From: a virus
Direction: 5' to 3' (one strand)
Virus genome (UHGV): UHGV-0110229
DNA length: 53,808 nucleotides
Part shown: piece after piece, positions 5,135 through 30,278 of the stretch
Layout of the letters: every line of letters begins with the position of its first letter
Position numbering within the stretch: the stretch's first letter is position 1
Notes under the pieces: model-generated
What the model saw: only the letters and a program-made list of their open reading frames with translations
Database searches by the model: none
Told to the model about the DNA's origin: nothing
Translations under genes and position numbers: made by a program

Positions 5135-6253
5135 TTACAAAATGGAAAATTCAGGGTAATAAACAAAGCGCCCGATCTCACCATGATCCGGGCTGTAGAT
5201 GATAACCGCCGCCAGGCGACGCGACCGCCATCCGCCATTAGTCGAATAAGCATCCTTACCGGCTAACGTGCCGTGGTGCTCAACAATTCCGAGCGACGTT
5301 TCAACGACTGATTGATGGTGCAGATGTCCAGTGTGCGCGTAAACAGCAACCGACTTCCCGAAATCCTCGCGCCAGTCAGAGACGCAAGCAGCCAATAAAT
5401 TTTCAGGCTTTTTGATAGTGTGCCCGTGGTGGTAAGCGAGAAATGTTTTACCGTACTGCGTGTGGTGAACGATAGCAGGTGACACATCAACCGTCACACG
5501 CGGTTCATCTTCGTAAAAAGCCGCCAGCGCCGCACGTAACCAGATCATCCCTGACTGATCGTGATTGCCTGATAACACCTGGATTTCAATATCCTTATGA
5601 TTTAACAACATCTTACCTACAGCACGCCGGACAGACCTGATCGCTACATAGACAAGTTTTGCATAACGACTATCTTGATCAAGAATGTGCCCGCTTGTTG
5701 GCGTAACCGGGACCATTCCATCAGAATGAAGCAGGTCGCCACCTAGAAGCAAAACGGCTTTTTCAGACATCGGCGCGGCGCCCACAGCGTAGTCAAAGAA
5801 GTCATTCAACACGCGCTCAGCGATCCCGGTGTCGTAGCTCTCGCCGCATTCTGCTTTGTGAGCAAGTGCGCCGATATGCAGATCAAATACCGGATAAAGG
5901 GCCAGGCTTTTTTGGAAATCAATTTCCGGCACTGGCACGGCCTCCGCGCGTGGTATTTCTTCCGTGAATGCGTCGCGGGCCGATTCCATTAGCTGTTCCA
6001 TTTCATCGCGGTCACGGGCTGTTTTAATCCAGCGCATGATCACATTGCCGTTCTTATCGACTAGCAACGACTCGCCATTGACGCCAAAACCAGGCGCGCG
6101 GCGTGTTGACAATAAACCGCGTTTCGCCAGTTTTGCCCCCAGGCGCTCTACGTTGCGTTTTGACATGCCGTACTTTTCAGCGATCTGCTTGTACGTTAAA
6201 CCGTTGTTATATTCAGCGATCAATTGCTCATCGCTTATCTTTCTTTGTGACAT
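5135..6253 (-). CDS. HTH domain fused to calcineurin-like (Mre11/SbcD-type) metallophosphoesterase
   Basis: 372 aa; N-terminal HTH (LTYKQIAEKYGMSKRNVERL); phosphoesterase motifs DLHIG, GGDLLHSD, SGNHD, YHHGH, HTGHLHH. Confidence 0.6.
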   Translation of the reverse strand: MSQRKISDEQLIAEYNNGLTYKQIAEKYGMSKRNVERLGAKLAKRGLLSTRRAPGFGVNGESLLVDKNGNVIMRWIKTARDRDEMEQLMESARDAFTEEIPRAEAVPVPEIDFQKSLALYPVFDLHIGALAHKAECGESYDTGIAERVLNDFFDYAVGAAPMSEKAVLLLGGDLLHSDGMVPVTPTSGHILDQDSRYAKLVYVAIRSVRRAVGKMLLNHKDIEIQVLSGNHDQSGMIWLRAALAAFYEDEPRVTVDVSPAIVHHTQYGKTFLAYHHGHTIKKPENLLAACVSDWREDFGKSVAVYAHTGHLHHQSVVETSLGIVEHHGTLAGKDAYSTNGGWRSRRLAAVIIYSPDHGEIGRFVYYPEFSIL

Positions 6254-6287
6254 AGTGTCATTTCCTCACGAATAACAAATTGTATAC

Positions 6288-7028
6288 TTAGTTACAAGTT
6301 AAAAGCTCAGTGATCCATACTTGTCCTTTAGCAGTGAATACAGCCTGCTCATATCCATCGTGAGTTACCCTCATTTCACCGTAGCCCTCATCAATAAACC
6401 ACTGACTGAATACACGGCGGCGACAGCGAAGATCGTAAACACCAACCGCCGAAAGTTTTCTGTTTAATTTTACGGCTGACATTCCCAGCGGTTTAGCTAC
6501 CTCTGAAGCCGTTCGGTGCATATCGTTTTTGACTATCGCGTCACATACAGCCGCTTTCGGAGCCAGCACCTTGTTTTCAAGCGTAAGCCGTTCATTTTCT
6601 TTCTTAACTAACAATTTTTGCTCAACCTCATCCGCCCATGCGCGGGCTGCCGCAACCGGATCAGTGAAATCCGGCAAAGCTAGTTTGTGTTGCGCCTCCT
6701 CCAACTCTTTAACGCGTTTAATTACCTTCATGCGTTGCTTAACGTCATAGCCAGTGATCAAGCACATTGTTAGCTCTTTATTTAGCAAAACCTCATCAAT
6801 GACGTTGCGACCTTTGTACTGCTTGTACTTAAACAAAAACCCTATAAATTCAAAATCCTGCATTTTTGCAGGATAAAAATCATGTTCAGTAAACCCTAAA
6901 TCTAGCAGCATGTTTTTAATATCACGCACAACCACAGAAGAATGATCCTTGTCTGTTGCTTCTGCTATTTCACGCGATGAAATCATTAATACTTCGCTAT
7001 CGACATCAAAAACCATCAATTCAGACAT
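6288..7028 (-). CDS. Rha-family regulator with KilA-C (antirepressor-type) C-terminal domain
   Basis: Start taken at MSELMVFDV (GGAGAAAA RBS upstream); N-terminus Rha-like, C-terminus KilA-C-like; ORF track gives a longer 6288..7088 version. Confidence 0.55.
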   Translation of the reverse strand: MSELMVFDVDSEVLMISSREIAEATDKDHSSVVVRDIKNMLLDLGFTEHDFYPAKMQDFEFIGFLFKYKQYKGRNVIDEVLLNKELTMCLITGYDVKQRMKVIKRVKELEEAQHKLALPDFTDPVAAARAWADEVEQKLLVKKENERLTLENKVLAPKAAVCDAIVKNDMHRTASEVAKPLGMSAVKLNRKLSAVGVYDLRCRRRVFSQWFIDEGYGEMRVTHDGYEQAVFTAKGQVWITELLTCN

Positions 7029-11752: not shown

Positions 11753-11977
11753 ATGATCGAAGGTAAAGAAGTTGATAGGGAAATGCCTGACACAGCAGAT
11801 GACTACGTTACTTTTGATGGTGGCATGTATGAGTTCGATACGTCGGCTGGTTGGCATGATAAATGGCCTCTGCCTACTCGCAAGGAATTGAATGACCGTA
11901 AATCATTCGGCGAAGATGCCGAACGCCTGGCGAATAACAAATGGCTTGATAAATTCATTGCGGAGGGTGGCAAATGA
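11753..11977 (+). CDS. Hypothetical early protein
   Basis: 74 aa ORF. Confidence 0.4.
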   Translation: MIEGKEVDREMPDTADDYVTFDGGMYEFDTSAGWHDKWPLPTRKELNDRKSFGEDAERLANNKWLDKFIAEGGK

Positions 11978-12081
11978 AAAAGATTGCAATGTTAGCCGCA
12001 TTTGTTGCTGTGGCGGCTGTTTACCTTAGTGCGTCACTTTATATCACTGTGGCGATTGTTAAGCTGATTACTGACATGTGA
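11974..12081 (+). CDS. Small hydrophobic peptide (35 aa, single TM)
   Basis: MKKIAMLAAFVAVAAVYLSASLYITVAIVKLITDM; GGAGGG RBS; ATGA overlap with upstream gene. Confidence 0.35.
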   Translation: MKKIAMLAAFVAVAAVYLSASLYITVAIVKLITDM

Positions 12082-12088
12082 GGCTTAT

Positions 12089-12205
12089 ATGCGAGTCGAT
12101 AAAAATACTGTAAGGGCTGTTTTCTGCGTGGTCGCTTTCGTCTTCATGGTGGTAATAGCTGGCGCTACTGCGGCAATTATTAGCTATATCGGCGGGGTGA
12201 TGTGA
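12089..12205 (+). CDS. Small hydrophobic peptide (38 aa, single TM)
   Basis: MRVDKNTVRAVFCVVAFVFMVVIAGATAAIISYIGGVM; stop overlaps next start (TGATG). Confidence 0.35.
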   Translation: MRVDKNTVRAVFCVVAFVFMVVIAGATAAIISYIGGVM

Positions 12206-23344: not shown

Positions 23345-23545
23345 ATGATTGAATGCCTTATTATTGCGGTTATTATCATTTACCTGGCTGGCGTCATTTT
23401 AATGGGCGCTTTTCAGAAAGCTGTTGATAGTGACGGCATTATTTGGTTCGAGCTAGTCTTCTGGCCTTTCATTACGATATACGCATTCAGTGACGCTATG
23501 CGTATTAACATCATGCGAGCCATTAAGGAGCGCAAAAATGATTGA
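23345..23545 (+). CDS. Small membrane protein
   Basis: 66 aa MIECLIIAVIIIYLAGVILMGAF.., GGGGGTGA RBS. Confidence 0.35.
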   Translation: MIECLIIAVIIIYLAGVILMGAFQKAVDSDGIIWFELVFWPFITIYAFSDAMRINIMRAIKERKND

Positions 23546-24000: not shown

Positions 24001-24201
24001 ATGTTCGACAGAATACGGGAGGCGTGTGCGTATGTGACCGGGGCCGTAACTGCTTTTTTCGGCGCGATAACCATCAATGACATTGCCGTCTTTGTGGGTA
24101 TCTTATCAACCATTGGCACATTTGCCGTTAATTATTACTTCAAATCACAGGAGAACAAGCGAGCGCAAGAGGAACACGACGCGCGAATGGGGAATAAGTA
24201 A
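24001..24201 (+). CDS. Class II holin (pinholin-like, two TMDs)
   Basis: 66 aa from ATG 24001 (GGAGGT RBS); two hydrophobic segments and charged C-terminus; resembles phage 21 S-type holin. Confidence 0.6.
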
Positions 24202-24202
24202 C

Positions 24203-24694
24203 ATGATTAGCCAATCGCTGAAAAACAAGATTGTTGCGGCGGCGGCTGGTGGGGCGATCGCTATTGCGGCGGTGATGATTAAGCCATTAGAGGGAGTTGA
24301 TTACAATCCTTATCGTGATGTTGTTGGTGTATGGACTGTTTGCCACGGTCATACGGGAAAAGACATCATGCTTGGCAAGACTTACACGCAATCAGAATGC
24401 GATGCTTTGTTAAATAAAGATCTACACAAGACCGCAAAAGCGATCGATCCATATATTAAAGTCGAAATATCAGATTTTACCCGCGCAGCACTTTATTCAT
24501 TCGCCTATAACGTAGGCGCTACCAATTTCAAAACATCAACCTTATTGAAGCTACTCAATGACGGCAAGAAATCAGAAGCGTGCGCACAGCTTAAACGCTG
24601 GGTATACGCTGGCGGTAAGAAGTGGCAAGGCCTGGTTAACCGCCGCGAGGTTGAATATGCCGTTTGCGAATGGGGTGAAACATGGACAAGGTGA
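24203..24694 (+). CDS. SAR endolysin (T4-lysozyme-type muramidase with N-terminal signal-arrest-release domain)
   Basis: Gly/Ala-rich weakly hydrophobic N-terminus ([17 protein letters not shown]) then E-8aa-D-5aa-T catalytic triad ([16 protein letters not shown]). Confidence 0.85.
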
Positions 24695-25152
24695 AGACGT
24701 TAATCATCGCCGTTGTTGTTTGTATTGTTGTTGGCCTTGTTGCCGCGCTCAGTCATTGCCAGTCAGTGATAAACACAATGCAAAGCGAGCTAACTACTAC
24801 GCAGGGCGCACTAAAAACAGCAAGTAACACTATTCAGCAGATGAAGGAGCGAAACGCCGAACTGTCAAAACTTGATAAGAGGTATCACGATGAGATTAAA
24901 GCTATCAGATCTGACATTGCCGATCTGCGCACTGGCATTGATAACGGTACTATCCGGTTGCGCGTCAACGCAATACCCGTGCGAGTGTCCGACTCCACCG
25001 GAACCGCCAGCCGCATTGATGGAGCCACCTGTAGACTCACTCCCGACGCTGAATCAGCTTATCTATCCCTCAGAGAACAACTAAAAACGAAAGACGCTCA
25101 GATCACTGGGTTACAGGACTACATCAAAACGCAGTGCTTACGCAAAGAATAA
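24682..25152 (+). CDS. Rz: Rz-like i-spanin
   Basis: 156 aa; N-terminal TM anchor, coiled-coil periplasmic domain; overlaps the endolysin 3' end. Confidence 0.6.
24890..25084 (+). CDS. Rz1: Rz1-like o-spanin lipoprotein embedded in Rz (+1 frame)
   Basis: [26 protein letters not shown].. with lipobox LSGC and Pro-rich mature region; AAGAGG RBS. Confidence 0.55.
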   Translation: MRLKLSDLTLPICALALITVLSGCASTQYPCECPTPPEPPAALMEPPVDSLPTLNQLIYPSENN

Positions 25153-25431
25153 CAGCGCGTGGACGTGTCGCCGTTTCCGCCAGCCAGCCATAACCGGGCC
25201 AATCCTTCCCGCGAGCGACGGCGGAAAAGTCAAAAACACGTAATACCTGGTCAACAGCCTCATTAACAGGTCCGGCGCTACCTGGGTAGAAGAAAGCGCC
25301 ATTCTCCAGTTTTATAAAATTCTGAAAACGGTACTCATGCAGCGCCGTTTTTAGTGTTTTATAGCTGTTTTCACTCCCTGCGGTGTCCGGTTTTGCGGGG
25401 GTTATATTTTTCAGGATAGAGGAATATTCTG

Positions 25432-26016
25432 ATGGCTAAGGCTAAAGGCATCAAGTTGCCTCAATTCAAAGTTCCGCTCTTTGAGCATACAACTGTTTTC
25501 TTCTGCCCGACCCGCGAGATGTTCTATGAGTTTTGCGAAAAGGCAGGGATCCCAATCGAACCTGATTTCGAACTGGCAGGGGGATTAACACTTACTTGCA
25601 CTGGAGAGAAAGGCGGTAACTTCTACGTGATCGCAGTATTCGACAATGAGTTAGGAACGCTGGTACACGAATGCGCCCACACCACATTTCACGTATTAAG
25701 TGATGTAGGTGTCGTGGCGACAACTGATCCAACTCATCCGGCAAACGAGACTTACGCTTACATGGTAGGCCGCATCTTTGATGCATTCTTCCCGATCCTG
25801 GCTGAATCAAACGAAGCACAGGTGGCAGCTATGCAGGCCGCTGAAGTCGTAGAGAAGGCATTAGACCAGGCAGAAAAGGCGACTGATGCAGCAGAACAGG
25901 CAGTTGAACAGGCAGAGGAGCCGAAAGAAGAGAAAAAACCAGCGAAGAAAGGCAAACGTAAGCCTAAAGCAAAAGAAGCGCTTGTACCGCGTGTAATGAG
26001 CTTTAAACGGGGGTGA
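25432..26016 (+). CDS. HExxH-motif protein (putative metallopeptidase-like) with K/E-rich low-complexity tail
   Basis: 194 aa; single HECAH motif; C-terminal EEPKEEKKPAKKGKRKPKAK. Confidence 0.45.
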   Translation: MAKAKGIKLPQFKVPLFEHTTVFFCPTREMFYEFCEKAGIPIEPDFELAGGLTLTCTGEKGGNFYVIAVFDNELGTLVHECAHTTFHVLSDVGVVATTDPTHPANETYAYMVGRIFDAFFPILAESNEAQVAAMQAAEVVEKALDQAEKATDAAEQAVEQAEEPKEEKKPAKKGKRKPKAKEALVPRVMSFKRG

Positions 26017-26018
26017 TT

Positions 26019-26087
26019 ATGGTTACTTTTCTGTTGGGTTTATTTATCGGAATGGCTGCCGCTGTAATATTACTGGTTGGTGAATAA
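26019..26087 (+). CDS. Mini membrane peptide P1 (22 aa)
   Basis: MVTFLLGLFIGMAAAVILLVGE; GGGGGTGA RBS; starts 3 nt after upstream stop. Confidence 0.3.
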   Translation: MVTFLLGLFIGMAAAVILLVGE

Positions 26088-26091
26088 TGTT

Positions 26092-26274
26092 ATGGATGAT
26101 TATATCATTGCCGGATTGATCGGCATTTCTGTATATCTGGTGGGTTTTATTGCAGTTGCACTAATAAACGCAAAGATCAAGCGCTGGCTGGAGGGCAAGA
26201 TGATTGACCCGCTCGTTATCCTTTCTTTATGCGTCGCTGTATGGCTGGCGATCATGATATTCATTGAAAGCTGA
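26092..26274 (+). CDS. Mini membrane protein P2 (60 aa, 2 TM)
   Basis: MDDYIIAGLIGISVYLVGFIAVALI..; first ATG within track ORF 26077..26274. Confidence 0.35.
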   Translation: MDDYIIAGLIGISVYLVGFIAVALINAKIKRWLEGKMIDPLVILSLCVAVWLAIMIFIES

Positions 26275-26285
26275 AGGTATTCACC

Positions 26286-26360
26286 ATGAATATTTACGAT
26301 CTCATCTGGTGGTCAGTGGTCGCCGTCATTATCTATTTCTGGTGGAAGAATGTTGTATAG
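26286..26360 (+). CDS. Mini membrane peptide P3 (24 aa)
   Basis: MNIYDLIWWSVVAVIIYFWWKNVV. Confidence 0.3.
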   Translation: MNIYDLIWWSVVAVIIYFWWKNVV

Positions 26361-26368
26361 GTGACGGC

Positions 26369-26467
26369 ATGGATATATTCGAATTACTGGCGATTATGTG
26401 CGGAATGATGCTAGGCGTTGTCGCCATAATCATAATCATCGGCCTTGTTATGGGTAGCATCAAATGA
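26369..26467 (+). CDS. Mini membrane peptide P4 (32 aa)
   Basis: MDIFELLAIMCGMMLGVVAIIIIIGLVMGSIK. Confidence 0.3.
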   Translation: MDIFELLAIMCGMMLGVVAIIIIIGLVMGSIK

Positions 26468-26544
26468 ACGCATACGAAATGCTATTGCTGGTGGCTGTTA
26501 TTACAGTTATTGCCGTTGATTTCTATCGAGGGTTTAAAAGATGA
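26464..26544 (+). CDS. Mini membrane peptide P5 (26 aa)
   Basis: MNAYEMLLLVAVITVIAVDFYRGFKR; ATGA overlap with P4. Confidence 0.3.
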   Translation: MNAYEMLLLVAVITVIAVDFYRGFKR

Positions 26545-26612
26545 GAGAAGCAGACTTCTTTTGCATGATTATAGTGATTGTCATCGTTGCGGTGCTTTTA
26601 AGTGTTAACTGA
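26541..26612 (+). CDS. Mini membrane peptide P6 (23 aa)
   Basis: MREADFFCMIIVIVIVAVLLSVN; ATGA overlap with P5. Confidence 0.3.
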   Translation: MREADFFCMIIVIVIVAVLLSVN

Positions 26613-26628
26613 ATCGCAGGAGTTAAAA

Positions 26629-26697
26629 ATGAAATGGCTTGATTTCTTTTTCCTGATTGTCGCAATTGTTCTAACCATGACCGCGCTGACTCAATAG
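26629..26697 (+). CDS. Mini membrane peptide P7 (22 aa)
   Basis: MKWLDFFFLIVAIVLTMTALTQ; AGGAG RBS. Confidence 0.3.
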   Translation: MKWLDFFFLIVAIVLTMTALTQ

Positions 26698-26765
26698 GTT
26701 GTGGCTTGGACGCGCATTTTATGCGCTTCCTAAATTCATCAAGTCAAATAAAGTGGATGGTAACG

Positions 26766-26852
26766 ATGAAAGAGCTATTCGACTTTCTGGAAACGGTAAC
26801 ATACTGCGCAACATTAATTGCGTGTTTATATATTCTGTGCAAATGGTTTTGA
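26766..26852 (+). CDS. Mini membrane peptide P8 (28 aa)
   Basis: MKELFDFLETVTYCATLIACLYILCKWF. Confidence 0.25.
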   Translation: MKELFDFLETVTYCATLIACLYILCKWF

Positions 26853-26862
26853 GAGGTGAAAT

Positions 26863-27348
26863 ATGGCCCGCACTAAAAAGGCAAAAGCTGACGATAAAAA
26901 GCCAGCAGCTAAAAAGGTGGGCCGTCCGCATGGTTATACCGAAGAAAAGGCATTAGAGATCTGTGAGCTGGTGGCGGACGGTCAAAGTATTAACAGGATT
27001 TCGAAGATGCCTGATATGCCTGCGCGTTCAACAATCCTTAAATGGTTCAGAGACGTGCCAGAGTTCTCGGACATGTACATACGCGCGAAAGAGATCGGTT
27101 TTGAGGTATTGGCTGATGAGATTATCGACATAGCTGACGCAGCGGAGAACACCGATAAAGACCAATGCCGCCGCCATCAATTGATGATTGAAACCCGTAA
27201 ATGGCTATTGGCAAAACTGCAACCGCGTAAGTATGGCGAACGCGTTACGCAGGAAATCGTAGGCAACAGGGAAGAAGCACCAGTACAGGTAGAAGTCACA
27301 AAAGAAGAGATCGCCCGCATCGTTCAGGAAGTAGAAGATGAGGTGTGA
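26863..27348 (+). CDS. Terminase small subunit
   Basis: 161 aa; basic N-terminus with HTH-like segment (GQSINRISKMPDMPARSTILKW); immediately upstream of TerL with ATGA overlap. Confidence 0.6.
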   Translation: MARTKKAKADDKKPAAKKVGRPHGYTEEKALEICELVADGQSINRISKMPDMPARSTILKWFRDVPEFSDMYIRAKEIGFEVLADEIIDIADAAENTDKDQCRRHQLMIETRKWLLAKLQPRKYGERVTQEIVGNREEAPVQVEVTKEEIARIVQEVEDEV

Positions 27349-28829
27349 TTATGCTGACAATCAAAGAACGAGTTATTCAGTCCAAATGTGAAAACGATGG
27401 CCTGTTTTTCAATCGCTACTTCTATAAGCAAGCGAACGGAACGAAGATGTTAATCTCAGGCCATCACTTAGCTATCCGCGACGCACTGCAACGCGTTGTC
27501 AATGGTGAGATAACCCGACTCATCATTAACATCCCTCCAGGGTACGGCAAAACCATGATCGCAACTATCAACATGATGGCGCGGTCACTCGCAATAAATC
27601 CCCGCACACGATTCCTTCATGTCTCCTATTCCAACAACCTGGCGTTACTCAATTCCTCGACCGTAAGAAACATGATCTGTACGCCTGAATATCAGGCAAT
27701 GTGGCCCATGAGGATCCGCAACGATGCAAACTCAAAATCAATGTGGTGGACTGAATACGGTGGCGGCGTGTATGCAACGTCATCGCTTGGCCAGGTTACA
27801 GGGTTCCGCGCGGGGTATATGGAACCAGGATTTAACGGCGCGTTAATCATCGACGACCCATTAAAACCCGCTGACGCTTATTCTGACGTGGTGAGAAAGC
27901 AGGTTAACACTAACTATAACGACACGCTTGCTTCACGTCTGGCAGTGCAAACAACGCCTGTTATCGTCATTATGCAGCGCATCCACTACGATGATTTGTC
28001 CGGCTACCTGCTACGCGGTGGAAGCGGTGAAAAGTGGTATCACCTTAACCTGCCAGTGAAGATCGACAACAGCGTTGACTACCGGGATTTGTATCCTGAA
28101 AACGAGTTCGCAATCCCTATTCCTCACAACCTGCCTGATGGCTGGCTGTGGCCTAAAAAGCACAATGACGCCCATGAAGCTGGACTGAAAGCACACAGGC
28201 GGTCATTTGAGGCCCAGTACATGCAGCGCCCGCGTAAATTCGACGAAGAGGGTGCATTGTGGACTGAAGCGATGATAACCGCAGCGCACCGTATGCAGAT
28301 AACGCAGGACAAGATCCGCACCGTGATAGCCATTGACCCGGCGACAACATCATCTGATGAGTCAGACGAAACGGGGATCGTGGCGTGTTCCGCTTATGGT
28401 GGCGGTAAGAATGCTCAGTATTCTGTTGATGGTGACTATTCGGGCCGCATGTCGCCTAACGACTGGGCGCAGGCATCAATGAACGCCTACAACATCCATG
28501 AAGCTGACGCGATAGTTATCGAAACCAACCAGGGCGGCGAAATGGCAGAGGCCACGCTACGCAATGCCGGATTCAAAGGCCGAATTGTTAAGGTGCACGC
28601 AAGCAAAGGTAAATTCGCCCGTGCCGAACCAATATCTGCACTGTATGCGCAAGGAAGGGTTGCACACACTGGCAGCCTGTACACGCTGGAAAATCAAATG
28701 ATGGAATACGTGCCAGCCACCGCCAAAAAATCCCCTGACCGTATGGATGCGATGGTATGGGGTATCACCGAATTAAGCCAGCCACAGGCAATGGGCCTCA
28801 TGTTACCGAAGCGCCTGCGCGGATTTTAA
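27345..28829 (+). CDS. Terminase large subunit (ATPase + nuclease)
   Basis: 494 aa; Walker A-like NIPPGYGKTM; Walker B-like ALIIDDP; acidic nuclease-type residues in the C-terminal half. Confidence 0.8.
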   Translation: MIMLTIKERVIQSKCENDGLFFNRYFYKQANGTKMLISGHHLAIRDALQRVVNGEITRLIINIPPGYGKTMIATINMMARSLAINPRTRFLHVSYSNNLALLNSSTVRNMICTPEYQAMWPMRIRNDANSKSMWWTEYGGGVYATSSLGQVTGFRAGYMEPGFNGALIIDDPLKPADAYSDVVRKQVNTNYNDTLASRLAVQTTPVIVIMQRIHYDDLSGYLLRGGSGEKWYHLNLPVKIDNSVDYRDLYPENEFAIPIPHNLPDGWLWPKKHNDAHEAGLKAHRRSFEAQYMQRPRKFDEEGALWTEAMITAAHRMQITQDKIRTVIAIDPATTSSDESDETGIVACSAYGGGKNAQYSVDGDYSGRMSPNDWAQASMNAYNIHEADAIVIETNQGGEMAEATLRNAGFKGRIVKVHASKGKFARAEPISALYAQGRVAHTGSLYTLENQMMEYVPATAKKSPDRMDAMVWGITELSQPQAMGLMLPKRLRGF

Positions 28830-28907
28830 AATCTGACTCACAATCCACCACAAGTTTTTCTATTTTTCGCGTAGCAACGCGTAAACATGTATTCAGGAGT
28901 AAACATT

Positions 28908-30278
28908 ATGCCATCCAATTTAGAATTGGCGGTTAATGCTGCCTTGTCACAACGTAAGGCGGCCTATGCCCGCTATGCAGCCGCCAACCCATTCACTATG
29001 GGGATAGATGCCAAACGCGATACTGCGTGGAGTGAATACGGATTCAAAGAAGAGATCACGTATGACGACCTGTACAAACTGTACAGACGCGGTGGTATTG
29101 CTCACGGTGCTATTGAGAAAATCATCACGACGTGCTGGCGCACCAAGCCAAAGATGATCGAAGGAACTGAAGACGAGAAAGCGAAAAAGGAAACACCGTG
29201 GGAAAGAGAAATCAAGAAGAAATTTAACAACAGATTTTGGCGCACTGTTGCTGAATGTGATCGCCGCCGCCTCATTGGTCGTTATGCTGGCCTGTTGATT
29301 CATGTAAGAGATAACCAGCCGTGGGATCAGCCAGTGACAAAAGGTGTAGGCATTGCCAAATTTACCCCGGTATGGGCTGGCGCTCTTACACCGAAGGAGT
29401 TCGAAGAAGACCCGAACAGTGAAAACTATGGCCTGCCAACGTGGTGGGAATACAAAGAACGCATTAACAGTAAGACCATTGCCAGAAGAATCCACCCTGA
29501 CCGCATATTCATCTTTGGCGACTATTCTGATGATGTCATCGCTTTCCTTGAACCGTCCTATAACGCCTTTGTGTCACTTGAGAAGGTGGAAGGGGGTAGC
29601 GGTGAATCATTCCTGAAAAACGCCGCCCGCCAGCTTGCTATCTCGTTCGATAAAGAGATTGACTTCCGTTCCCTTGCTGCAACATACGATTGCGACGTTA
29701 CAGAGTTACGCGAAAGATTTAATGAGGCTACTGCTGAAATGAATAAGGGTAATGACGTAATGATGGCGTTACAGGGTGCAACAGTAAGCCCGCTGGTTAC
29801 TGCTGTATCTGACCCGTCATCAACCTATGACGTAAACCTGCAAACCGCCGCCGCTGGTGTTGATATTCCAACCCGCATCCTGGTAGGGAACCAGCAGGGC
29901 GAACGCGCATCAACCGAAGACCTCCGCTACTTCAACAGCCGCTGTATGACCCGCAGGGAGGAAATTGGCGGTGAACTTGAAGATCTGTTCCGCAAGATGG
30001 CAGATCTCCGCCTTATCAGTATGCCAATTGACGTATCAGTGATATGGGACGACCTGAACGCCATGACCAAAGCGGAGCTACTGGAAGCCGCAGACAAGAT
30101 GGCGCAAATCAATCAGGCTTGTTTGGCTACTGGTGAAGAAATATTTAGCGGTGACGAGATCCGCGAGGCTGCCGGATACGATGGCCCTGCCAGTGTAGTT
30201 GAAACGGAAGAGGAAGACGATGATGAAGGTGAAGAAGATAATCAGGCGAATACCTCCAGCCGCGATAATGCCATCTAA
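28908..30278 (+). CDS. Portal protein
   Basis: About 456 aa from ATG 28908 (AGGAG RBS; alternative ATG 28887); position after TerL; acidic C-terminal tail. Confidence 0.6.
   Translation: MPSNLELAVNAALSQRKAAYARYAAANPFTMGIDAKRDTAWSEYGFKEEITYDDLYKLYRRGGIAHGAIEKIITTCWRTKPKMIEGTEDEKAKKETPWEREIKKKFNNRFWRTVAECDRRRLIGRYAGLLIHVRDNQPWDQPVTKGVGIAKFTPVWAGALTPKEFEEDPNSENYGLPTWWEYKERINSKTIARRIHPDRIFIFGDYSDDVIAFLEPSYNAFVSLEKVEGGSGESFLKNAARQLAISFDKEIDFRSLAATYDCDVTELRERFNEATAEMNKGNDVMMALQGATVSPLVTAVSDPSSTYDVNLQTAAAGVDIPTRILVGNQQGERASTEDLRYFNSRCMTRREEIGGELEDLFRKMADLRLISMPIDVSVIWDDLNAMTKAELLEAADKMAQINQACLATGEEIFSGDEIREAAGYDGPASVVETEEEDDDEGEEDNQANTSSRDNAI

Follow-up and report, generated by a model that had tools for sequence, protein, structure and literature searches.

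Between the lysis and packaging genes of the viral genome UHGV-0110229, examined here over its whole stretch of 53,808 nucleotides (the window), lies an array of minute open reading frames (ORFs), each encoding little beyond one hydrophobic helix, which, judged from how they vary among relatives, are real protein-coding genes under purifying selection. Eight co-oriented ORFs on the + strand span positions 26019-26852, between the gene for a 194-residue HExxH protein (the family of gp49 of phage mEp021; gp49 below) and that of the small terminase (TerS). One of the eight is a fusion of two units, so that the array has nine units rather than eight, designated A to I (Table 1). The window is the complete or near-complete genome of an mEp021-like temperate coliphage of the mEpimmI group, a phage of gut Escherichia coli, and in its relatives the same colinear cassette locus holds at least 12 further families beyond the nine units seen here.

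Evidence that the mini-ORFs are genes

The comparison drew on 60 related loci, or 61 with that of the window: annotated phages and E. coli genomes contributed 14, and IMG/VR contigs, to which the HExxH protein led, the other 46. Across them the same mini-ORFs are found intact whatever their mutual frame, with nearly fixed lengths and with ATG as the start codon in C (58/58), F (60/60) and H (57/57). The ratio of nonsynonymous to synonymous differences (pN/pS, Nei-Gojobori) lies between 0.07 and 0.42 in every family and, pooled, is 0.25 in frame versus 0.94 and 1.47 in the shifted frames, while on the opposite strand the frame that shares the wobble position gives 0.35, the expected echo, and the other two antisense frames 0.82 and 1.82. 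Variable sites fall at codon positions 1, 2 and 3 in the numbers 156, 98 and 263. Neutrality would predict about 23 nonsense changes (minimum substitution events among intact alleles, a figure that is indicative rather than exact because the alleles were chosen by modal length), as against one truncated copy in about 590, that of D in IMG/VR contig 3300029816_000005 (L015), which ends after 11 codons (MNIYDLIWWSV*). A preliminary description of the region, made from the sequence of the window, had allowed that the small ORFs might lack conservation and owe their hydrophobicity to accident; intact reading frames in 60 relatives, with the pooled pN/pS just given, speak clearly against this.

Signals and spacing are those of a tightly packed translated unit. 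Shine-Dalgarno (SD) motifs of the GGAG, GGTGA or GGGG type precede most starts, gaps between consecutive ORFs are almost always -14 to +18 nucleotides (nt), with 102 four-base (ATGA) and 49 eight-base overlaps, and the ORFs fill a median 92% of the array. The first cassette, be it A, A2, A3, A4, B or C, always has its ATG 2 nt past the gp49 stop codon and uses the same SD in the 3' end of the gp49 gene; in the window this cassette is A, with the SD GGGGGTGA.

The preliminary description placed the array correctly, after Rz/Rz1 and a protein with an HECAH motif and before the terminase, gave the right N-termini of the peptides, and proposed translational coupling through ATGA, which is borne out by real overlaps at E/F and F/G. 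What it took for a single ORF of 60 amino acids (aa) is the fusion of B (38 aa) and C (24 aa). The two are separate units in relatives, where the TGA that ends B (31-38 aa) shares bases with the start of C; in the window one G is lost from a run of four at about 26193 (26190-26196), turning GGAGGGGC into GGAGGGC. This fusion occurs in one of 53 copies of B, that of the window only, and could be a real mutation or a homopolymer sequencing error. C retains its own ATG and a GGAGGG SD within the fusion. At the other end of the array an in-frame ATG upstream of I, at 26721, would make a product of 43 aa.

The concentration of such ORFs is local: 6 of the 17 strongly hydrophobic small ATG-initiated ORFs on both strands of the 53.8-kb window fall in this 0.85-kb stretch of one strand. 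Two readings other than peptide genes, an RNA element and a DNA tandem repeat, gained nothing from direct searches, no Rfam family matching over the region at E<=1, and only chance-level repeats of 12-17 nt, with no DNA-level tandem repeat, being present in it.

A colinear locus with shuffled content

At least 21 hydrophobic families (A, A2, A3, A4, Q, B, P, N, C, D, O, E, F, G, H, J, K, L, M, I, I2) make up the locus, and they keep a fixed order. A phage carries 3-13 cassettes (median 10); the 61 loci present 43 architectures and 53 distinct array sequences, always in the same order and always between gp49 and TerS, over array lengths of 318-1,154 bp, with accessory cassettes present in some loci and absent from others. 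Four families are nearly universal, I (or its allele I2) occurring in all 61 loci, F in 60, C in 58 and H in 57; the other families are patchy. The laboratory-propagated phage mEp021 has five cassettes and one contig has three. A single member is not hydrophobic, the soluble cassette S, which stands last before TerS in five loci (Table 1).

The surrounding genes vary much less: compared with the window, the holin (14 alleles) and the N-domain of gp49 each have a median identity of 98%, and TerS one of 92%. Relatives in which gp49 is only 60-67% identical nonetheless have near-identical C, D, F, H, J, K and I, and the pairing of near-identical mini-genes with a divergent gp49 indicates that the cassettes are exchanged within a common pool. 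Some relatives have acquired HNH endonuclease genes here, either ahead of the array, after gp49, or ahead of Rz, after the lysozyme gene (Table 1), which marks the region as an insertion hot spot. In P22-like phages, too, the slot from Rz to TerS holds unrelated accessory genes, among them KilA-N and DUF2560 genes in HK620 and one that is Dec-like in ST64T.

Properties and kinship of the peptides

Each unit has 22-38 residues. All 21 hydrophobic families have the character of a hydrophobic helix, with Kyte-Doolittle maxima over 15 residues of 1.9-3.6 and uncharged stretches of 13-30 residues. The N-terminal tail has 0-10 residues and is net negative in 15/21 families; the C-terminal tail has 0-16 residues (0-8 in most families) and is neutral or basic in most and net acidic in four. 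Basic residues are mostly C-terminal, though only F (+2) and M (+4) have C-tails that are clearly basic. Of positions 2-7, 21% are acidic, versus 4% elsewhere, in a shared N-terminal pattern M-x-x-x-[DE]-hydrophobic, which agrees with the short polar N-terminus, usually with an acidic residue, and the one helix after it noted in the preliminary description and may reflect common descent, a constraint of topology or a constraint of translation initiation. A reading as signal peptides or arbitrium-like pre-peptides was considered and rejected, the N-termini being acidic rather than basic and the hydrophobic segment reaching the C-terminus, with no mature part.

That the eight are paralogues, as first proposed, holds in part. 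Judged by z-scores against composition-preserving shuffles, several pairs are clearly akin (I~I2 10.7, G~L 9.1, F~N 8.1, A~A4 7.7, H~L 7.5 and, both members being in the window, G~H 6.1), with lower scores for D~N (3.8) and for the window's own D~F (3.5). The 210 family pairs together have a mean z of 1.2, and 12% of them lie above z = 3. Paralogy is demonstrable only within subgroups, and the eight paralogues first described are better put as nine units from several such subgroups.

A second pair of ORFs for mini-proteins with one transmembrane (TM) segment was seen in the early region of the window (11974-12205, + strand), of 35 aa (MKKIAMLAAFVAVAAVYLSASLYITVAIVKLITDM) and 38 aa (MRVDKNTVRAVFCVVAFVFMVVIAGATAAIISYIGGVM), each overlapping its neighbour ORF by 4 nt; MagusPhagus (90%) and mEp010 (75%) have the pair as well.

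Phage background and neighbouring genes

The phages of the mEpimmI group are non-lambdoid, Nus-dependent temperate coliphages reported to be as common as lambdoid phages in human gut samples (PMC11893012), and the paper on the group makes no mention of the array locus (PMC11893012). The order holin-lysozyme-Rz-gp49-TerS-large terminase (TerL)-portal is common to the window and to mEp021, mEp010, mEp013, mEp044, mEp515 and mEp554, with 89-93% identity to these phages in the region. The 1.6 kb around the array is 87-93% identical to mEp044, mEp010, mEp021, mEp515, mEp554, mEp013 and MagusPhagus; identity reaches 97.5% with a prophage in E. coli WCHEC025970, and of 5,426 complete E. coli genomes 35 contain a match. 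The preliminary description had viewed the array against the canonical lambdoid layout; the phage is not lambdoid, and what stands of that view is that a block of this kind between lysis and packaging genes is unusual. Locally the window runs from holin, endolysin and Rz/Rz1 through a hairpin, the HECAH protein and the eight + strand ORFs to the small terminase, the large terminase and the portal. The gene in the portal position of L004, the WCHEC025970 prophage (6105-6597, equivalent to window 28887-30278), is named 'anti-CBASS protein Acb1 family protein' by the Prokaryotic Genome Annotation Pipeline (PGAP); its homologue is annotated as portal in mEp021 and MagusPhagus and matches Pfam Phage_portal_3 in relatives, so the Acb1 name is probably misleading.

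The lysis genes upstream look like a pair of pinholin and signal-anchor-release (SAR) endolysin, with the SAR character of the endolysin suggested by its N-terminus. A further ORF of 66 aa (23345-23545, + strand) with two hydrophobic segments (MIECLIIAVIIIYLAGVILMG...) and an acidic residue near the N-terminus lies just upstream of this cassette. Between Rz and gp49 stands a terminator-like hairpin (Table 1), as stable as which none of 200 shuffles folded; the homologous site carries a terminator annotation in mEp021 and mEp013.

The protein gp49 has the single HECAH motif that was first described, and an A/E/K-rich tail. Its first 125 residues or so form a mini-zincin-like domain, which is followed by a long A/E/K-rich helix and then by a basic tail. 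Among 104 diverse homologues G51, H79, E80, H83 and E106 are invariant and Y110 nearly so, an HExxH...E pattern that constitutes a gluzincin-like signature in which E106 would be a metal ligand. The AlphaFold2 model (mean predicted local distance difference test score 91) predicts the succession strand, strand, helix, strand, strand, HExxH helix, very long helix (103-161) and basic disordered tail. The query itself falls below the Pfam SprT-like threshold and has no Pfam hit, and 25/104 homologues match that family weakly (best E-value 9e-4); a profile search of PDB reached only E>=0.04, to myroilysin, a Foldseek search of the model against PDB gave no significant match to any solved structure, and fold matches in BFVD were to phage proteins that are uncharacterised or named 'SprT-like' (E about 4e-5) or metalloprotease. 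A SprT-like label is thus weakly suggested. Phage mini-metallopeptidases of the SprT-like/zincin kind are what gp49 resembles in the invariant HExxH with downstream Glu, in the predicted topology of beta-sheet plus active-site helix and in its BFVD matches; it differs from them in the sub-threshold Pfam score, the lack of a solved-structure match and the extra charged helix and basic tail.

The N-domain family is widespread among phages as stand-alone proteins of 110-140 aa (152 cluster representatives at E<=1e-3), and only the version of the mEpimmI phages has the long charged helix with the basic tail. Directly after the spanin gene there are homologues in ST64T, L, epsilon34, PS119 and PS3 (46% identity), as well as in RSB3, a T7-like Ralstonia phage. 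That phages as unrelated as the P22-like and T7-like types both have the family in this place is a hint that it serves a conserved late function independent of the array. A paralogue, hkcC, adjoins gene 16 and sieA in P22 and HK620; literature searches on hkcC gave no relevant precedent. GTDB representative genomes contain no match to gp49.

Table 1. Features at the array locus, with window positions unless a locus number (L) is given
Feature	Coordinates	Strand	Observations
Class II pinholin-like holin, 66 aa, two TM domains (TMDs), G/A/T-rich TMD1	24001-24201	+	Pfam Phage_holin_2_3 2.8e-14; weak match to P21 holin S; annotated as holin in relatives
Lysozyme-family endolysin, SAR-like N-terminus	24203-24694	+	Pfam Phage_lysozyme 2.8e-44
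Rz i-spanin	24682-25152	+	Pfam Phage_lysis 4e-26
Rz1-like lipoprotein ORF, embedded in Rz in another frame	24872-25084	+	LSGC lipobox, Pro-rich tail
Strong hairpin followed by U-rich tract, terminator-like, between Rz and HExxH gene	25312-25364	+	RNA fold -20.7 kcal/mol, z = -5.5
HExxH protein, 194 aa, mEp021 gp49 family, single HECAH motif	25432-26016	+	phrog_1365 (function unknown) 5e-31
Mini-gene A, 22 aa, MVTFLLGLFIGMAAAVILLVGE	26019-26087	+	Intact in 30/30 copies; pN/pS 0.42
Fused mini-genes B+C, 60 aa, two hydrophobic helices	26092-26274	+	B elsewhere separate, 31-38 aa; B pN/pS 0.26
Mini-gene C unit, 24 aa (MIDPLVILSLCVAVWLAIMIFIES)	26200-26274	+	ATG and 24 codons in 58/58 copies; pN/pS 0.30
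Mini-gene D, 24 aa, Trp-rich, MNIYDLIWWSVVAVIIYFWWKNVV	26286-26360	+	45 copies; pN/pS 0.36
Mini-gene E, 32 aa, two GxxxG motifs, MDIFELLAIMCGMMLGVVAIIIIIGLVMGSIK	26369-26467	+	SD AGGTGA; 31 copies; pN/pS 0.15
Mini-gene F, 26 aa, MNAYEMLLLVAVITVIAVDFYRGFKR	26464-26544	+	ATGA overlap with E; 60/61 loci, all ATG; pN/pS 0.29
Mini-gene G, 23 aa, MREADFFCMIIVIVIVAVLLSVN	26541-26612	+	ATGA overlap with F; 25 copies; pN/pS 0.24
Mini-gene H, 22 aa, MKWLDFFFLIVAIVLTMTALTQ	26629-26697	+	SD AGGAG; ATG in 57/57 copies; pN/pS 0.13
Mini-gene I, 28 aa, MKELFDFLETVTYCATLIACLYILCKWF	26766-26852	+	I or allele I2 in 61/61 loci; pN/pS 0.07
Small terminase, Sf6 type	26863-27348	+	Pfam Sf6_terminase PF20901 2.2e-37; phrog_1482 1.8e-49
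TTG-start ORF, 67 aa, masking D and E	26264-26467; L004 3461-3664; L014 2279-2482; L005 2340-2543	+	PGAP/PHANOTATE calls
Soluble cassette S, 48 aa (MVSNEELKMADEIRKALDAAENNETVYFSEREVEKMMDEFKLKFEKDN)	Last before TerS in L025, L026, L033, L041, L049		Only non-hydrophobic member; pN/pS 0.35
HNH insertions	L007 2148-2633; L087 and L088 4563-5000 and 2739-3263; L086 2752-3273		
gp49-family homologues	ST64T gp49 (L061 2501-2890); RSB3 ORF49 (L091 2369-2698); HK620 hkcC (L062 2001-2366)		

Place in annotation and databases

The mini-genes have largely escaped annotation. None is called in the type genome of mEp021, and PGAP calls none, or only an ORF of 67 aa with a TTG start that crosses D in the wrong frame into E (Table 1); PHANOTATE and Pharokka call some as 'hypothetical protein'. 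In RefSeq prophages the locus is missed almost wholly or shows up as that off-frame ORF. Against Pfam, NCBIfam, PHROGs and PADLOC nothing was significant, the best scores being below threshold (DUF3302, E 0.02; DUF3789, E 0.03). A tblastn search with the concatenated mini-proteins against 50,697 phage records returned seven mEpimmI-type phages only, an IMG/VR scan seeded with the F family returned only contigs already reached via gp49, and GTDB representative genomes had no F-family match. In a large protein database the concatenate of the longer mini-proteins had three hits only, products of 165-176 aa on contigs under 1 kb; the mini-proteins seem to be absent from it because gene callers do not call them. 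Literature searches for arrays of small TM proteins in phages found no relevant precedent. Small phage membrane proteins and variable accessory slots are known already; an array that keeps its order while its content is shuffled, with up to 13 micro-TM genes, is described neither in the paper on the group nor in the literature retrieved.

What the mini-proteins may do

Read-through of the post-Rz hairpin would bring the array into the late transcription of the lysis and packaging genes, a course that fits with no promoter-like site having been found near the array. The mini-proteins would then be translated from their own SD sites or by coupling and would insert in the inner membrane, mostly N-out/C-in, an orientation suggested by the acidic N-tail and neutral-to-basic C-tail under the positive-inside rule and by analogy with the Pf3 coat. 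YidC substrates of that type likewise have a single TM helix between an acidic N-tail, which is short, and a basic C-tail, and are the basis for predicting Sec-independent insertion; the comparison extends to insertion mode only, the mini-proteins not being virion proteins of filamentous phages and no homology being claimed. Once there they would be confined in their action to the bilayer, making contact helix to helix with other membrane proteins or disturbing the membrane itself.

The content of the array turns over rapidly although every single cassette is conserved, its slot is a hot spot of accessory genes, and some phages have only 3-5 cassettes. On these grounds we tentatively favour, at somewhat less than an even chance even when taken in its general form, the reading that the mini-proteins are dispensable accessory membrane modulators of a conflict type, each cassette with a different membrane-embedded partner; they would accordingly be neither core lysis nor core packaging components. 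Candidate partners would be host transporters, DNA-entry channels, membrane effectors of abortive infection and the proteins of competitors. Of the roles suggested in the preliminary description as lysis regulators, toxins or immunity peptides, none is singled out by sequence, family or context.

Known systems offer partial parallels for such a role. The Storz-type small single-pass inner-membrane proteins of bacteria (such as YohP, AcrZ, MgrB, SgrT and PmrR) are alike in having 20-50 residues and about one TM helix and in being often missed by annotation. Those whose action is known bind larger membrane proteins or disturb the membrane. They differ as solitary chromosomal genes with their own regulation, whereas up to 13 members are chained in one phage operon here, with cassette-like presence and absence, and family-library scans gave no sequence or family match between the two. 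Superinfection-exclusion proteins (HK97 gp15, T4 Imm and Sp, P22 SieA) are likewise accessory phage inner-membrane proteins, acting on membrane steps of a rival's infection, but are single genes for about 80-160 aa with prophage or early expression, while the array lies in the late region with no promoter of its own found. The anti-CRISPR and anti-defence loci of Mu-like Pseudomonas phages and other 'moron' slots resemble it as fixed late or structural slots holding different sets of small conserved genes in near-identical phages; they encode soluble proteins under their own promoter and a regulator (aca), in contrast to TM micro-proteins with no regulator or promoter detected.

Several points weigh against an accessory conflict role. 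A simple consensus scan found no sigma-70-like promoter on the + strand of 24400-27400 and no convincing terminator after the array, a weak negative given the crudeness of the scan; with no promoter or terminator of its own found, the array is unlike the classical morons and exclusion genes expressed in lysogens. Its low GC content, 40.5% versus 47-50% in the flanks, counts for an accessory role but may be due to hydrophobic codon content alone. In family-library scans the mini-proteins match no defence, anti-defence, exclusion, holin or toxin family, the searches brought up no sequence relative of known function, and the retrieved literature holds no established anti-defence precedent for transmembrane micro-proteins. 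The near-universal C, F, H and I would equally fit a core role, and translation, membrane insertion and topology are all inferred from the DNA. In a bolder version of the accessory reading, which we regard as unlikely, the array would serve as a toolkit whose pieces are freely combined, every cassette supplying a transmembrane 'decoy or inhibitor' helix that neutralises a different membrane-embedded target by binding it within the membrane; possible targets would be pore-forming abortive-infection effectors triggered by late proteins such as terminase or portal, or the inner-membrane DNA-entry routes of competitors.

The main alternative, a real if minority possibility, is that the mini-proteins modulate the lysis clock, binding the pinholin-like holin or the SAR anchor, or altering membrane energisation, and so delay or sharpen lysis as trans-acting antiholin-like factors. 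The array is downstream of and co-oriented with holin, endolysin, Rz and Rz1, the lysis system is of the presumptive pinholin and SAR-endolysin kind, C, F, H and I are nearly universal, and small TM antiholins are a known kind of protein. Pairs of pinholin and SAR endolysin, as in phages 21 and P1, are governed by TM-TM contacts and the proton-motive force. Holins and antiholins such as pinholin S21 68/71 of phage 21, LydA/LydB of P1 and RI of T4 are, like the mini-proteins, small late membrane proteins encoded beside an endolysin, and act by TM-TM contacts. Yet a strong terminator-like hairpin and the gp49 gene intervene, the number of cassettes varies from 3 to 13 beside an almost invariant holin, and P22-like phages hold non-lysis accessory genes in the equivalent slot. 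The mini-proteins, moreover, match no holin or antiholin family model (Pfam, PHROG), are single minimal helices mostly without the highly charged cytoplasmic C-domain of holins, and are highly variable in content in a phage whose bona fide holin is already upstream.

It is less probable still, and on balance improbable, that they are membrane toxins or host shut-off peptides which depolarise or permeabilise the inner membrane late in infection, in the manner of Hok, TisB, Ibs, Ldr or YohP. Their size of 22-38 aa and extreme hydrophobicity are those of type I toxins, some of which (ldrABC, ibs/sib, hok/sok, tisB) also come as tandem paralogues, and several contain GxxxG or small-xxx-small motifs that, as read from their sequences, would be compatible with oligomerisation. 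Type I toxins, however, have each their own promoter and antisense RNA, whereas the array genes form a tightly coupled operon on one strand rather than stand-alone genes; neither an Rfam antisense-RNA family nor, in a simple consensus scan, a minus-strand promoter-like site was found within it, and the genes are chained at spacings of -14 to +18 nt. Early depolarisation would, besides, fire a pinholin/SAR system too soon and lower the burst, and up to 13 different toxins are hard to rationalise.

The preliminary description had also suggested that the mini-proteins are substrates of the adjacent HExxH protein, and one may add that they might anchor it at the membrane as partners; either is very unlikely. 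The association is close, with the HExxH gene directly before the array in 61/61 loci, with the first cassette coupled to its stop codon, and with a charged helix and basic tail found only in the gp49 of this phage group. But homologues occupy the same slot after Rz without any mini-proteins in ST64T, L, PS119 and RSB3, no mini-ORF array being present at the gp49-family loci inspected in ST64T, PS119, RSB3 and HK620, and these loci of P22-like phages and RSB3, with the commonness of the family as stand-alone proteins, make a protease-substrate link unlikely; gp49 has no signal peptide and no TM segment, the peptides offer almost nothing outside the membrane to cleave (0-13 residues outside the hydrophobic stretch), and HNH genes can come to lie between gp49 and the array.

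Scarcely credible, finally, is the absence of any peptide function, the array being a translated spacer that only relays ribosomes and prevents Rho-dependent polarity from lysis to packaging genes, or accidental ORFs in AT-rich DNA: the ORFs are indeed very short and end to end, several annotation pipelines call none, and their polar, A-rich first codons could serve translation initiation, but constraint is seen in every family and only in the called + strand frame, nonsense changes are depleted about 20-fold, the hydrophobic helix is kept in all 21 hydrophobic families, and a relay needs no 21 distinct conserved peptides.

Implications

The locus adds at least 21 conserved hydrophobic micro-protein families without a Pfam, NCBIfam or PHROG match, in a common phage group, and carries the lesson that length cut-offs in gene callers hide real phage genes. 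Its 43 natural cassette combinations on near-identical backgrounds provide an experimental system for the roles of single-helix micro-proteins in infection. Were the toolkit version of the accessory reading true, counter-defence or exclusion loci would gain a new class, made up wholly of micro-proteins and shuffled as cassettes among gut coliphages; and if the mini-proteins tune lysis or block membrane defence or superinfection, they would represent a new and very compact way for a phage to act on membrane proteins.

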